Positions 5,241 to 11,490 of a stretch of 64,000 nucleotides of DNA are shown one piece after another. Under the pieces are notes generated by a model. It worked only from the letters and a program-made list of their open reading frames with translations, made no database searches and was not told where the DNA came from. Position numbers and translations under genes: made by a program. Origin of the DNA: an uncultured Erysipelotrichaceae bacterium (lineage in GTDB: Bacteria > Bacillota_I > Bacilli_A > Erysipelotrichales > Erysipelotrichaceae). Each line of letters begins with the position of its first letter. Position 1 is the stretch's first letter. The stretch is taken from assembly GCA_937874965.1 (NCBI GenBank), contig CALNCD010000068.1:10886-74885 (forward strand), in the 5' to 3' direction.

Positions 5241-5265
5241 AAAAGCAGCCGACGCTGCTTTTTTT
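5241..5265. terminator. Bidirectional intrinsic terminator between convergent ohyA and the LPXTG gene
   Basis: AAAA-GCAGC-cgac-GCTGC-TTTTTTT. Confidence 0.75.
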
Positions 5266-5872
5266 AATGCTGTTTCCGGTCGATGTACTGATTCAGTGCC
5301 AAAATGACGAGCCCCGCGACAATGAGAACTGCTATTGCTTGTTCATTGATTCCTTGAACACCGGTATTCGGCAAGTCTTTTCCCCCGGTTTCGGGTAAAT
5401 CCCGGGTTCCTTCGATGGCTTTGAAAATGATTCTGAATTGAGTCAGCTGGTTTTGATAATCATTGGTCAATGCCGTAGGCAGACTGATCTGAAGGTGGTA
5501 GGTTTTTTCCTGATCAATCTGGAATAATCCCAGTGAAACCGATTCAGACATGGATGTTGATGTGAACAGAACCTTCTGGGCATCATCGGTAATCGTCATC
5601 ATCAGACCGTCCCAGAGTTTATTGTCTGCAGCACTGCAGGTCACAATCAGTTTGATCGGCTGCTGGGAACGGTTGGAGACCAGAAACGATTCCTGCAAGG
5701 CTTGTCCGGGAACCAGATCACTGGCATTGATCATGAATGGATCATGATTCAAGGTTAAGACAAAATCTTCAGCTCCCCCTTGATAGATCACTTGCGAATC
5801 AGCGGCATGAATAGGCAACAGTGCCATCATCAATAGAACGGCCGTCATCACAGCTTGATACCAACGTTTCAT
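5264..5872 (-). CDS. LPXTG cell-wall-anchored protein (last gene of the SipW operon)
   Basis: Start moved to the ATG at 5872 (GGAGGGA RBS; MKRWYQAVMTAVLLMMALLPIHAADS is a Sec signal peptide). The C-terminus is LPETGGKDLPNTG + hydrophobic helix + RKQH, a sortase sorting signal. Confidence 0.85.
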   Translation of the reverse strand: MKRWYQAVMTAVLLMMALLPIHAADSQVIYQGGAEDFVLTLNHDPFMINASDLVPGQALQESFLVSNRSQQPIKLIVTCSAADNKLWDGLMMTITDDAQKVLFTSTSMSESVSLGLFQIDQEKTYHLQISLPTALTNDYQNQLTQFRIIFKAIEGTRDLPETGGKDLPNTGVQGINEQAIAVLIVAGLVILALNQYIDRKQH

Positions 5873-5873
5873 T

Positions 5874-6428
5874 TTAATCCCTCCTCCCCAATCGGCCCTC
5901 GCCATCCACGCTGACATGAATCCATTTTGAACTGACCAGATCGGCTTGATCCCCCTGGATTGTACTGGACACCACATCTAATGCATAGTGATAGCCCCGT
6001 TGGGTTGGCGGTGTAAAGGATTCCAACAAGTCAGACGTTGTCTGTCCAGGAAGAAGGAGAGCTTTATAATAATAGAACCCATCACTGGCTAGAAACCAGC
6101 TGGATGTCTCATTTAATTCAATCTGCACCAAAGGTGCCGGTCCCGCAACCGAACAGGAGCTGATCACCGCAGATCCTTCCGTATCCGGACAGCTTAGCCA
6201 ATTGGCCGCCAGGACAACCCGAACATAGACCTCAACATTCCCTGTATTCTTGATGGAAACATGTTCCTTGGTTGTTCCGTCAAAGGATTCATGAATGGTC
6301 TGATCAACTTTCCCGGGAACAAACCGGTTTTCCAAGGAATCAGTCGTCTGCGAAAGATACGCCAAGGTAACACTGGAAATGGCTAGAATAACTGTCATGA
6401 AGGAAATCAACGCAAGTTTTAAGCGCAT
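5874..6428 (-). CDS. SipW-class signal peptide protein, TasA-like minor subunit candidate (184 aa)
   Basis: N-terminus MRLKLALISFMTVILAISSVTLAYLSQTTDSLENRFVPGKV has the SipW-cognate signal pattern. Its ATG shares a base with the TGA of the upstream VWA gene. Confidence 0.75.
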   Translation of the reverse strand: MRLKLALISFMTVILAISSVTLAYLSQTTDSLENRFVPGKVDQTIHESFDGTTKEHVSIKNTGNVEVYVRVVLAANWLSCPDTEGSAVISSCSVAGPAPLVQIELNETSSWFLASDGFYYYKALLLPGQTTSDLLESFTPPTQRGYHYALDVVSSTIQGDQADLVSSKWIHVSVDGEGRLGRRD

Positions 6429-9750: not shown

Positions 9751-10335
9751 TCAGTTCAATTTGCTATCCATTGCTGTTATCGCAGCAGCATTAATATCAA
9801 CAGAAGCATCGACGTTATCCACCTGATGGACATACGCAACAATATTCATCGTTTTAGTGCTTAAAGCATTCAGCTGGGCTGCAGTTGTATCAGCAGCAAT
9901 CGTTAGGGTATTAAACAATGTAAACGACTGGTCAGCAGCAGAAGTCGCTACTGTGCTCTTAAGTTTATAATAGTCACGGATGGCACCGTTTACGGTCTTC
10001 GTATCAATTTTTTCCCAGAGTGCGGAATCAACCTGATATGTTGCTTTTGACACACCCTCAATGACAAGCTGATTTTCAACAGCAATATACACTGCTGTCG
10101 GTTCACTGTCTGCCTTAACGGTTACTGTCGGATCTTTCGCCAATGTTTTGTTGGGAGTAATGATATTCGCTTCTGGATCCCAGTTCGGTTCGGTGAGTTC
10201 TGCATCGATCTGTCCGACCTTGAAGATATTCTTCTTCACTTCAGTTGTCTGGTTCAGATACGCCCACGTTGATAATGCCCCCACGCTGATTGCGAGAATC
10301 AGCCCAAAGGTTAATACTATTTTCTTCTTATTCAT
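9751..10335 (-). CDS. TasA/CalY/BsaA-like SipW-dependent matrix/fibre protein, paralog 2 (194 aa)
   Basis: Signal ...GALSTWAYLNQTTEVKKNIFKVGQIDAELTEPNWD. Alignable along its length to the 206-aa neighbour. AGGAGA RBS. Confidence 0.8.
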   Translation of the reverse strand: MNKKKIVLTFGLILAISVGALSTWAYLNQTTEVKKNIFKVGQIDAELTEPNWDPEANIITPNKTLAKDPTVTVKADSEPTAVYIAVENQLVIEGVSKATYQVDSALWEKIDTKTVNGAIRDYYKLKSTVATSAADQSFTLFNTLTIAADTTAAQLNALSTKTMNIVAYVHQVDNVDASVDINAAAITAMDSKLN

Positions 10336-10343
10336 GATTTCTC

Positions 10344-10964
10344 CTAGTTAAGTGCTGCCAAAACAGCTGGGACAACAACGGATGAATATGCATCGGTTTG
10401 ACCCTCAATCGTTGCTTGATGGGCAAATGCAGTGACATGGATTGATGCAGCAGATGCTCCCAATCCAGCCAACCCTGTCTGCGCATCGCTGTTCACGATG
10501 ATCTGAGTAAAGAAAGTGAAGTTCTGATCGGCATCTGCCTTTGAAATCACGGCTGGAGTCAATCCATCAGCTGAATAGACATAAATCGTTGGATCTTCAG
10601 AAAGAGGAAGCCATGACTTAGTATCGATATCGAAGGAAACCAGGCTTTGCTGATTCGCATCAACCAAGCCATTCTCCAGCTTCACAAACAAATAGCTGGC
10701 TTCACTCTTCGCTTTCAAGGTTACGATTGGATCTTTTGCAATCTGCTTATTCGGAACCAGGACGTTATACTCAGGGTTATAGTCTGGACTTTTCGTATCT
10801 GTGTACTTATCCCACGTCGGTTCATTCAGTTCAAGATCAATGTTTCCGACGACGAATGGATTGGTTTTGTCTGCTTTGTCTGTAAAGTAAGCCAAAGTTG
10901 AGAAAACGCTTACTCCGACCAGGACAACCAGTGCAACTGCTGTAATCAATTTACGCTTTTTCAT
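10344..10964 (-). CDS. TasA/CalY/BsaA-like SipW-dependent matrix/fibre protein, paralog 1 (206 aa)
   Basis: Signal ...VFSTLAYFTDKADKTNPFVVGNIDLELNEPTWD, the hallmark of the SipW-cognate class. Start overlaps the sipW 3' end by 14 nt. Confidence 0.8.
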   Translation of the reverse strand: MKKRKLITAVALVVLVGVSVFSTLAYFTDKADKTNPFVVGNIDLELNEPTWDKYTDTKSPDYNPEYNVLVPNKQIAKDPIVTLKAKSEASYLFVKLENGLVDANQQSLVSFDIDTKSWLPLSEDPTIYVYSADGLTPAVISKADADQNFTFFTQIIVNSDAQTGLAGLGASAASIHVTAFAHQATIEGQTDAYSSVVVPAVLAALN

Positions 10965-11490
10965 GTTTTAAATTCTCCTTTTTCTTGTGTTCTAAAATCC
11001 CATCAATGACAAGACTGCCGATGAGAAAAACAACGACACCCAATACAATAATCATCCCCGCCGGACTGCTCACCCACCGCATGACATACCCCAAAAAAGG
11101 CAAGACCGCTATGGGTTTCCCGATGACATTCTCGAAGTAAACAGGCGTACCGTCATTGACGTTATTCGCATCACCGCGCGTGATGAAAGACTGCTTATCC
11201 CGATCTATTTCAACAATCCGATGGGTCACGACAGTCAATGACTGATCGAGGACGAAGGTAACAGGATCATCAACCTGGAAATCCTGTGCTTTTTCCTTTT
11301 GTACCAGAATCAAAGACCCGACCGGATAGGTAGGTGCCATACTTCCAGAAAGCACAGCATAGGGTGTTATGCCTAATCCTCTTAAGCTGACCAGTACTCC
11401 CGCAATCAATACGACAAGAACGACGCCACTGTTCATCAAAATGCTTCCGAATTTCTTCACCTTATTCCATATCCCTCCCCTGCATAGCAT
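10951..11490 (-). CDS. sipW: Signal peptidase I, SipW (archaeal/ER S26B) type
   Basis: One N-terminal TM, catalytic SGSMAPTYP, VVTHRIVE, TRGDANNVNDG motifs, C-terminal TM. The exact start is uncertain (ATG 11490 or in-frame GTG near 11460). Confidence 0.85.
   Translation of the reverse strand: MLCRGGIWNKVKKFGSILMNSGVVLVVLIAGVLVSLRGLGITPYAVLSGSMAPTYPVGSLILVQKEKAQDFQVDDPVTFVLDQSLTVVTHRIVEIDRDKQSFITRGDANNVNDGTPVYFENVIGKPIAVLPFLGYVMRWVSSPAGMIIVLGVVVFLIGSLVIDGILEHKKKENLKHEKA

Follow-up and report, generated by a model that had tools for sequence, protein, structure and literature searches.

Fibres of the TasA/BsaA family are usually seen as shed matrix, and sortase pili as the sole covalent pili of Gram-positive bacteria. 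The locus described here raises the question of what kind of surface structure is encoded by an operon in which genes for a SipW-type signal peptidase and for TasA-like proteins are packed together with those for a protein carrying a von Willebrand factor A (VWA) domain and for an LPXTG protein. The operon occupies positions 5264-11490 of the minus strand in a stretch of 64,000 nucleotides from an uncultured Erysipelotrichaceae bacterium (assembly GCA_937874965.1, contig CALNCD010000068.1, positions 10,886 to 74,885 of the forward strand), hereafter called the window. Judging from its sequence, we estimate at about 60 per cent the probability that it encodes a sortase-anchored, self-locking pilus of the BsaA/TasA family, which would be assembled by donor-strand exchange and would bear a VWA adhesin.

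Seven back-to-back open reading frames (ORFs) of the minus strand, taken from the ORF list of the window, make up the operon. In the direction of transcription they encode an archaeal/ER-type (S26B) signal peptidase I of 179 aa (sipW, 10951-11490), two major-class TasA/BsaA-like pilins, p206 (10344-10964, 206 aa) and p194 (9751-10335, 194 aa), a 'u1'-class pilin, p180 (9177-9719, 180 aa), the VWA protein of 920 aa (6428-9190), a 'd1'-class pilin and proposed adaptor, p185 (5874-6431, 185 aa), and the LPXTG protein, here called the anchor (5264-5872, 202 aa, from an internal ATG of ORF 5264-5977). Neighbouring genes overlap by 14 nucleotides at 10951-10964 and 9177-9190 and by four nucleotides at 6428-6431, and a single nucleotide separates the last two at 5873; the layout fits co-expression, since the genes overlap or abut. 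Seven co-directional genes with these coordinates, overlaps and gap had been listed in an earlier note on this DNA, and all were confirmed. The public gene call of the VWA protein starts two codons downstream and gives 918 aa. An identical locus is present in the Logan assemblies of runs ERR14064711 and ERR14064712.

How could the small proteins of the operon be joined into a fibre? For BsaA of Clostridium perfringens, residues N35, E56 and K74 are needed for the formation of oligomers resistant to sodium dodecyl sulfate (SDS), and mutation abolishes these oligomers (PMC11580942). N35 is located on the N-terminal strand that enters the next subunit, and donor-strand exchange combined with an intermolecular isopeptide bond was proposed (PMC11580942). 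In a joint alignment, the triads of p206 (N35/E48/K77, with YFTDKADKTNPFVVG as the donor strand), p194 (N36/E49/K67) and p185 (N35/E48/K55) share columns with N35/E56/K74 of BsaA. The triad is invariant in 78 of 78 majors (N35/E48/K77 in p206 numbering), as it also is in a 47-member set, and is kept in 60 of the 66 members of the p185 class (N in 100, E in 97 and K in 91 per cent) and in 44 of the 50 members of the p180 class. The Glu and Lys of p206, p194 and p185 thereby correspond to those required in C. perfringens BsaA for the proposed autocatalytic Asn-Lys isopeptide bond, which would lock a donor strand to the body of the following subunit. In p180 the donor Asn34 is kept, and Gln47 and Tyr70 occupy the Glu/Asp and Lys columns, a combination found in only two members of the 50-member class, p180 being one of them. 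This pilin might donate a locked strand and not receive one, as a cap or an alternative chain starter.

The relationship of these proteins to the TasA/BsaA family extends over more than the triad. The 32 per cent identity between p206 and p194, both of which continue after the signal as N-x-F-x-V-G..EL.EP.WD, bears out the earlier observation of two alignable TasA/BsaA-like paralogs. Homologues of the majors mostly belong to PF12389 and bear the NCBI name 'TasA family protein'; among the majors, 25 of 47 are matched by TIGR04090 (BsaA family) and 42 of 47 by TIGR04088 (SipW-cognate signal). When the small proteins were compared with TasA/BsaA models, a check suggested in the earlier note, they proved to be related at the profile level, though the window proteins are sub-cutoff: TIGR04090 (cutoff 60 bits) gives 44.1 for p185 (E 2e-11) and 29.7 for p180 (E 4.8e-7), PF12389 gives p206 a score of 19.9, less than the 22.5 required, over the N-terminal 46 residues only, and similarity to TasA of Bacillus is confined to the profile level, with NF046066 matches at E 2e-4 or weaker. 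With signal peptides removed, the pilin classes are mutually linked in hhalign comparisons at 99.1-99.8 per cent (99.8 per cent for the p180 class against the majors), and BsaA matches the hidden Markov models (HMMs) of all of them, with E 2e-29 for the p180 class, 3e-24 for the p185 class and 3e-16 for the majors. By profile homology, p180 and p185, to which the earlier note had given no family, are also TasA/BsaA-like. The polymerising subunit may differ between lineages, because BsaA scores best against the p180 class and not against the majors. A sequence search of the PDB with the pilin profiles (A3, A5) returned nothing meaningful.

The enzyme expected to release the donor strands is encoded by the first gene. 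The sipW product scores 102.6 bits with TIGR02228 (archaeal/SipW type; cutoff 51.85), which upholds its earlier assignment as an S26B SipW-type signal peptidase, and remains under the cutoffs of the bacterial-type TIGR02227 (24.9 against 47) and of the Bacillus SipW equivalog NF046067 (88.7 against 190), the latter being expected for a non-Bacillus homologue. It is 33 per cent identical to C. perfringens SipW (E 1e-19). The window protein contains the motifs VLSGSMAPT, VVTHRIVEI and GDANN, of which SGSM, THR and GDAN are common to both enzymes; by analogy with B. subtilis SipW, we take the Ser and His of SGSM and THR to be the catalytic residues. The predicted substrates are the SipW-type signals of the four pilins. 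A SipW-type signal followed by a donor strand is found in p206, p194, p180 and p185 only, and not in five products as had been thought, the VWA and LPXTG proteins having ordinary signals. TIGR04088 (cutoff 19) gives 26.9 for p206, 18.7, just under the cutoff, for p194, 13.5 for p185 and no match for p180. The mature pilin N-termini read YLTxxxxxVTNTFTVG.

Three start codons are candidates for sipW: the ATG at 11490, an in-frame GTG at 11460 preceded by GGGGAGGG, and an ATG at 11436, used in the Logan record. The upstream intergenic region (11491-11880, read on the minus strand), the presumed promoter/leader, contains a terminator-like hairpin (CCGATTTTCATCGG) with a T-run at 11500-11513, which abuts the first of these ATGs. 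The annotated start of sipW may be wrong, or the leader may contain an attenuator.

The VWA protein, identified by PF00092 (35.6, cutoff 23.8), consists of an ordinary signal peptide, a VWA domain with a metal ion-dependent adhesion site (MIDAS) and inserted arms, and a beta-sandwich stalk whose last domain is CnaB-like; an LPXTG motif is absent. Signal peptides in its family are of the ordinary AxA type, and a SipW-like regular expression fits only seven of 77, so that the 'LAY' of the window protein is probably a coincidence. In an alignment of 30 homologues the MIDAS residues D91, S93, S95, T301 and D335 are invariant, the first three belonging to the DQSGS motif (aa 91-95) encoded at 8906-8920 of the minus strand. 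In the last domain K801, E865 and N897 are invariant and a YTVTE motif is present, which we take to represent a CnaB-type intramolecular isopeptide domain and the pilin E-box pattern. The AlphaFold 2 (AF2) model of the protein has a mean predicted local distance difference test (pLDDT) value of 78, and its top Foldseek matches are tip adhesins of sortase pili: PitA (2e-23), SpaC (1e-21), RrgA (3e-13) and GBS104 (1.5e-10). A PDB sequence search with the VWA profile had Mfa5 at the top (E 1.8e-5) and also returned PilB, a vWA-bearing pilin of S. sanguinis, the matches being limited to the MIDAS region or to short stretches. As modelled, the VWA protein would have the fold of a sortase-pilus tip adhesin minus the sorting signal, a likeness and not a membership.

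If the VWA protein lacks a sorting signal, by what means could it be joined to the pilins? A candidate is its C-terminal tail (aa 904-920, GLSKDALIRNIFQKGDQ, encoded at 6431-6481 of the minus strand), which follows the last domain and which we propose to be a donor-strand mimic acting through Asn913. The family consensus is WLNGFSAVVKNIFG plus a few residues, L905 and N913 are at least 90 per cent conserved, and the tail has low pLDDT in the AF2 model. Within their C-terminal 40 aa, 52 of 78 VWA proteins match the regular expression [WYF][LFM][NSTD]x5-8Nx[hydrophobic], about 22 times the 2.35 predicted by its density in the remainder of these proteins; among the majors, 71 of 77 have it N-terminally, as does one of 60 anchors. 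VWA proteins that fail the motif are mostly near-misses; clear absences occur where the gene order is different or the VWA protein has its own sorting signal. When the last 32 aa of the VWA proteins and the first 32 mature aa of the pilins were compared by profile-profile alignment, the two Asn residues coincided, as the expected register requires (P 0.0018); the score was 16.4, and 54 controls with shuffled columns reached 7.8 at most. When an HMM of the tail was run against 4439 other ORFs, the top eight matches were all pilin N-termini.

Individual sequences point in the same direction. The window tail, GLSKDALIRNIFQKG, resembles YLNQTTEVKKNIFKVG of p194, and the tail of C. perfringens BsaC, YFYDNKEKINDFG (YFYDNKEKINDFGILKLN), has the spacing of the BsaA donor strand WFTSSDSVTNPFS; BLASTP on its own pairs residues 25-47 of p206 with residues 600-618 of BsaC. 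Presence of the tail motif co-varies with presence of the p185-class Lys (counts 52/1/5/5, Fisher p 2e-4), and no co-variation was seen with the p180-class Lys. The resemblance of the tail to pilin donor strands, the putative link from the VWA tail to a p185-class adaptor and the tip-to-base assembly model set out below are new here, and are of a computational nature.

The opposite end of the putative fibre would be formed by the anchor. Its C-terminus reads LPETGGKDLPNTG-VQGINEQ-AIAVLIVAGLVILAL-NQYIDRKQH, where the second motif, LPNTG, lines up with the xPxTG of the family and its invariant T; this sorting signal, comprising LPETGGKDLPNTG, the hydrophobic segment AIAVLIVAGLVILAL and the DRKQH tail, is encoded at 5267-5398 of the minus strand. 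The anchor has an ordinary signal peptide, lacks the donor Asn and is matched by no family of Pfam or NCBIfam. In its family (alignment A2) an ordinary AxA signal is followed by an N-terminal VTYxGxAxxFVF segment, an invariant PG turn (..VMPGD..) and the sorting signal, of which there are three types: LPxTG, xPxTGD/E and LIQTGQLNWP. A sorting signal is present in 52 of 60 proteins encoded at the anchor position. When the anchor-family HMM was searched against 1.84 billion cluster representatives, at least 3000 relatives were found at E<=1e-3, of which 1178 reach E<=1e-10. A sorting signal is present in 132 of the 148 that score best, a SipW-type N-terminus in two and the donor Asn motif in none.

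From about column 30 onwards the anchor profile aligns with the pilin bodies, with an hhalign probability of 97 per cent (E 1e-10) for the p180 class and 91 per cent for the majors. The only PDB sequence matches of the family are to TasA, 8aur (E 0.055) and 5of1 (E 0.093), both weak. The AF2 model of the anchor, based on a thin alignment of seven proteins, is a beta-sandwich with pLDDT 65. We suggest that the anchor is a donor-less TasA-like subunit belonging to a sortase-anchored family. The homology of the anchor, the frequency of sorting signals and the match of the VWA model to tip adhesins are all as would be expected from a wall-tethered TasA-like fibre with a VWA adhesin, a structure proposed in the earlier note that fits all the tests run. 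NF053819 (EF0750/EF2685, CscD-like, from WxL loci) was tried as a family model for the anchors and rejected: it matches 19 of 42 with 17-21 bits (cutoff 47), in the signal peptide or sorting signal only, and gives no match to the window anchor.

The family also contains atypical members. In about ten loci (L011, L038, L044, L055, L056, L059, L061, L062, L067 and L077) the anchors end in LIQTGQLNWP (LLKTGQ in L011) and are directly followed by a small sortase gene, with TIGR01076 scores close to the cutoff and a class unassigned by NCBIfam; the sorting motif seems to be an unusual one, served by a sortase of its own. Anchors of this subgroup are in many cases longer (389-610 aa), with an extra CnaB-like 'YTPSY..VTITNT' domain. 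In L009, L014, L075 and L081 the anchor position is taken by a protein of 435-455 aa, with no sorting signal and with WYYADVQEATNSH in its C-terminal region, which may be a different, non-covalent wall-binding module.

Does the combination of these parts occur in other organisms? The VWA protein has more than 1,300 relatives, the best non-self match being 34 per cent identical across more than 90 per cent of the length, and the nearest loci, at about 33 per cent identity, are found in metagenome-assembled genomes of Erysipelotrichaceae. Using an alignment of VWA relatives as query and one genome per species, we confirmed 288 loci and kept 80, in which ORFs were called and iterative searches with the window proteins were performed. 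The taxa represented include Erysipelotrichaceae, Oscillospiraceae, Lachnospiraceae, Peptococcaceae, Christensenellales and Proteiniclasticum, as well as the actinobacteria Gordonibacter and Raoultibacter; Proteiniclasticum ruminis (L053), Gordonibacter pamelaeae (L074) and Brotomerdimonas butyrica (L071) are among the carriers available in culture. The neighbourhood survey for sipW, VWA and LPXTG genes proposed in the earlier note had a positive outcome: the cassette was seen in about 60 of the 80 loci, in Clostridia, Erysipelotrichia and Eggerthellaceae.

As a rule, sipW is followed by one to five majors similar to p206/p194, a single p180-like gene, the VWA gene, a single gene of the p185 type and one final gene. 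Each of the 66 genes that come next after the VWA gene has p185 as its best match, and p180 is the best match for 42 of the 49 that stand just before it, with p206/p194-like genes farther upstream. sipW is present in 64 of the 80 loci, and the VWA, p185-class and anchor genes co-occur in about 60. The recurrence of this arrangement in most of 80 independent loci is far beyond chance. Some variants were also observed: within the group L007, L010, L013, L020 and L073, some genomes contain two cassettes or tandem VWA genes, and in others the VWA gene is located upstream of sipW, the rearranged ones being without the VWA tail motif and the p185-class Lys.

The closest system with experimental data is the bsa operon of C. 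perfringens, sipW-bsaA-bsaB-bsaC, in which BsaC is a VWA protein (preprint of Kivimaki et al. 2024/25, PMC11580942; an earlier account is that of Obana 2020, PMC7395162). In strain 13, two genes have been fused to give BsaB, and in most strains the first of them carries an LPXTG motif (PMC11580942). We found a bsa locus (L086) in metagenome contigs via degenerate back-translation of the published BsaC antibody peptide. Located at 4689-10159 of contig OKWN01000006.1, it consists of srtB (class B, 295 bits), sipW, bsaA, genes for proteins of 250 and 210 aa, and bsaC, an arrangement of the ATCC 13124 type. Its BsaA contains V33, N35, F37, E56 and K74. The 250-aa protein ends with VPKTGD, a hydrophobic stretch and a basic tail and matches the anchor-family HMM (E 1e-28), and the 210-aa protein matches the p185 class (E 3e-29); together they agree with the published statement on the BsaB fusion (PMC11580942).

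The C. perfringens bsa locus and the window operon have the same parts list (sipW, pilins with the N/E/K triad, a p185-class protein, a TasA-like LPXTG protein and a VWA protein). In the former, however, the anchor and p185-class genes precede the VWA gene and srtB and bsaRS are adjacent; inspection of the window neighbours revealed no adjacent srtB or bsaRS two-component genes beside the operon, which has in turn two majors plus a p180-class pilin. BsaC (618 aa) is matched by BLASTP to the window VWA protein in the MIDAS region only, and lacks the long CnaB-type stalk. Two general statements of the earlier note have to be revised in the light of this locus. SipW substrates, BsaA included, had been considered to have no sortase link, but the C. 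perfringens operon has a class B sortase gene beside sipW and a VPKTGD protein. The architecture had further been thought uncharacterised, but sipW-bsaA-bsaB-bsaC, with its VWA protein BsaC and an LPXTG homologue of bsaB, was already described (PMC11580942). Operons that contain BsaA/TasA genes often include genes for LPxTG and SpaA-domain proteins, signal peptidases and sortases, and the role of LPXTG BsaB as a fibre anchor was a matter of speculation (PMC11580942). In the literature consulted we found no description of the present cassette, nor of a role for the C-terminus of the VWA protein.

In what order could these components be assembled? For BsaA, a base-growth model was proposed in which the newest subunit, held in the membrane by its uncleaved signal, takes the free strand of the prior subunit and is then cut by SipW (PMC11580942). 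In the scenario that we favour for the window operon, the VWA adhesin would be exported first via its ordinary signal, and its C-terminal tail (..RNIFQKG) would enter the groove of a p185-class subunit, where Asn913 would probably be locked to Lys55 of p185. SipW would cut the membrane-tethering signal of p185, and the freed N-terminal strand would enter a new major pilin, p206 or p194, and lock there. Repetition of this step, major on major, would generate the shaft, and growth would stop once the anchor (202 aa), itself without donor Asn and SipW-type signal, has taken up the final free strand. A C-terminal membrane segment would keep the anchor in place until a sortase of the housekeeping type joins the threonine of its LPXTG motif to peptidoglycan, and the MIDAS of the VWA protein would be the ligand-binding tip. 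Because the shaft would be joined by strand exchange plus lock, the links between subunits would be independent of sortase, which would serve for wall attachment alone.

A candidate for this last step is encoded in trans. A PF04203 scan of the window revealed a single sortase gene (32785-33444, plus strand; 9.2e-19), located outside the operon at a distance of about 21 kb with recR, dnaX and metG as neighbours; that the operon itself contains none had been noticed before, and is substantiated by the scan. The product scores 53.7 with TIGR01076 (cutoff 39.35) and 45.5 with the class C model, against a cutoff of 160, and NCBIfam assigns it to no class. We presume it to be the trans-acting enzyme for the anchor. 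A sortase-assembled pilus of the SpaA/Rrg type was considered and rejected, since p206, p194, p180, p185 and the VWA protein have no sorting signal, no sortase is encoded in the operon and there is no class C sortase.

Several observations weigh against the proposed scenario. Homology, motifs, conservation and gene order are observed, and from them we infer every contact between subunits, the polarity and the wall linkage. In C. perfringens, BsaC was recovered as a free monomer and BsaA oligomers were freed by SDS without lysozyme, in a strain without the LPXTG gene (PMC11580942), and outside the MIDAS region BsaC does not match the VWA-family HMM. The resemblance of the tail has its own weaknesses: the regular expression was composed after both sequence sets had been viewed; a 16-residue HMM of the pilin N-terminus run against the VWA proteins gave no significant result, with one match above the shuffled maximum and 17 of 74 best matches C-terminal; the co-variation of the tail with the p185-class Lys involves few independent lineages; and the tail in the window is without the aromatic-Leu pair with which the motif begins.

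The anchor is likewise open to objection. Its Foldseek matches are generic beta-sandwiches, the TasA fibre having the highest TM-score at just 0.39; the list also holds the archaeal bundling pilus, the Sulfolobus thread and FimG, none of them distinctive, and we count the result on the model as consistent, not as proof. TIGR01167 gives no match to the window anchor (E<=0.1); in the anchor family it matches 20 of 42 at E<=0.01, several of them above the cutoff of 15.9. Anchors have Gln at the acceptor-Lys position of the pilins, and the Lys typical of their own family (K51, 89 per cent, four residues before the invariant PG) is replaced by Ser in the window protein and, in C. perfringens, by Asp. 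These residues make it doubtful that the base junction is covalently locked.

Alternatively, the operon might encode a loose biofilm matrix, with secreted fibres, the VWA protein as a separate soluble or matrix adhesin, and the LPXTG protein acting independently or as a TapA-like loose nucleator. BsaA polymers of C. perfringens are mainly extracellular, BsaC was detected in the secretome as a monomer of about 70 kDa, and BsaA polymerisation persists in bsaB and in bsaC mutants; the absence of the pilin-type acceptor Lys from the anchor and the failure of BsaC and the window VWA protein to align outside the MIDAS region also agree with such a matrix. However, the C. perfringens strain studied has lost the LPXTG gene by fusion, so that loose fibres are expected there. 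Also speaking against a matrix of independent components are the strict VWA-p185-anchor order, maintained with overlapping or 1-nt junctions in about 60 loci, the conserved, disordered and donor-strand-like VWA tail with its co-variation with the p185-class Lys, and the TasA-like body of the anchor. We regard a loose matrix as unlikely, although it deserves to be taken seriously.

A fibre of opposite polarity can also be envisaged, in which the first pilin is primed by the anchor, whose N-terminal segment (..VIYQGGAEDFVL.., consensus VTYxGxAxxFVF) serves as donor strand, the donor strands of the pilins are directed outwards, and the VWA protein joins the fibre in some other way or not at all. 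TapA reportedly nucleates TasA by strand complementation, which favours such an arrangement, as do the conservation (F37 at least 90 per cent) and poor modelling (pLDDT <50 at residues 19-33) of the N-terminal ~27 residues of the anchor, and its lack of a pilin-type acceptor Lys. Yet the anchor has no Asn at the donor position, the donor motif is absent from all 148 family members, a free donor strand would be left at the distal end, the VWA tail motif would have no role, and there is a conflict with the base-growth model, where the uncleaved SipW-type signal tethers the newest subunit; this polarity seems improbable to us. Still harder to sustain is the view that the small proteins are camelysin-type (Peptidase_M73) metalloproteases, or unrelated exports sharing a signal type, clustered without structural meaning. 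It draws on the Pfam family name Peptidase_M73 and on the match of p206, which is N-terminal only and sub-cutoff; but homology spans the whole bodies, the invariant residues are the N/E/K triad and not a metal site, and the gene order is kept across phyla. The protease annotation of the camelysin/TasA family is regarded as a misidentification (PMC11580942), and we give this view very little credence.

The surroundings of the operon may be described briefly. Divergent from it is a gene for an AAA_15-type ATPase of 428 aa (11881-13167, plus strand), beyond which lies one for an HTH_11-WYL regulator (13646-14617, minus strand); the pair resembles defence or regulatory modules. No type IV pilus genes were found in the window; a dependence on type IV pili has been reported for BsaC. 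The window adjoins the chromosomal origin block, with gyrB at 54102-56027 and gyrA at 56036-58516 according to Pfam. Three ORFs upstream of gyrB (50091-51455, 51588-52709 and 53006-54112) occupy the usual places of dnaA, dnaN and recF, an assignment made by position alone. A bacterial small signal recognition particle RNA is encoded at 60264-60361 (plus strand, 67.4 bits).

The proposed pilus can be compared with several other surface filaments. It would have in common with the B. subtilis tapA-sipW-tasA and B. cereus sipW-tasA-calY systems the SipW-type peptidase and signals, donor-strand fibres of the TasA fold and an accessory tie to the cell. Neither operon is known to include a VWA or an LPXTG protein, and TapA is not known to be a sortase substrate. 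TasA is without the N-E-K triad and is not cross-linked (PMC11580942), whereas p206, p194 and p185 of the window carry the triad. The sortase pili SpaCBA, RrgABC, PitAB and pilus island 1 (PI-1) of group B Streptococcus (GBS) resemble it in the VWA tip fold, the CnaB triad, a covalent shaft built tip first and the joining of the base to the wall by a housekeeping sortase. The shaft proteins of the window, in contrast, have no LPXTG and no lysine in a pilin-motif context, are predicted to have the TasA fold, and would replace transpeptidation by strand insertion and an Asn-Lys bond.

Type V pili of Bacteroidota (Mfa1-5 / FimA-E) are similar in that a protease removes an N-terminal segment for strand exchange and in having a VWA subunit, Mfa5; they differ in their lipoprotein precursors, diderm envelope, C-terminal strand donation and fold, and in the absence of a sortase and of an isopeptide lock. 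Archaeal filaments, the bundling pili of Pyrobaculum (7ueg) and the threads of Sulfolobus (7pnb), also consist of beta-sandwich subunits joined by donor strands, with intermolecular isopeptide bonds in the threads, but no sortase anchor or VWA tip has been described for them and the structural matches are weak (TM about 0.3).

It is tempting, though still tentative, to see in the cassette a third route to a Gram-positive pilus, with a VWA tip in which a copy of a donor strand replaces the LPXTG motif, a p185 adaptor to which this tip would be locked by an autocatalytic Asn-Lys bond, a SipW-gated shaft and a donor-less, sortase-anchored terminator; such pili would be widespread among the Clostridia, Erysipelotrichia and Eggerthellaceae of the gut. 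From the cassette it seems that numerous uncultured Firmicutes of the gut build a fibre that is covalently locked, anchored in the wall and tipped by an adhesin, with no need of a pilus sortase. If the predictions concerning the tail and the anchor are true, roles would be given to BsaC and to LPXTG-bearing BsaB with srtB in C. perfringens. The structure would then be a chimera of chaperone-usher-like logic, sortase-pilus parts and TasA subunits, and would provide a self-assembling, self-ligating protein-fibre toolkit as well as a new class of colonisation factors in the microbiota.

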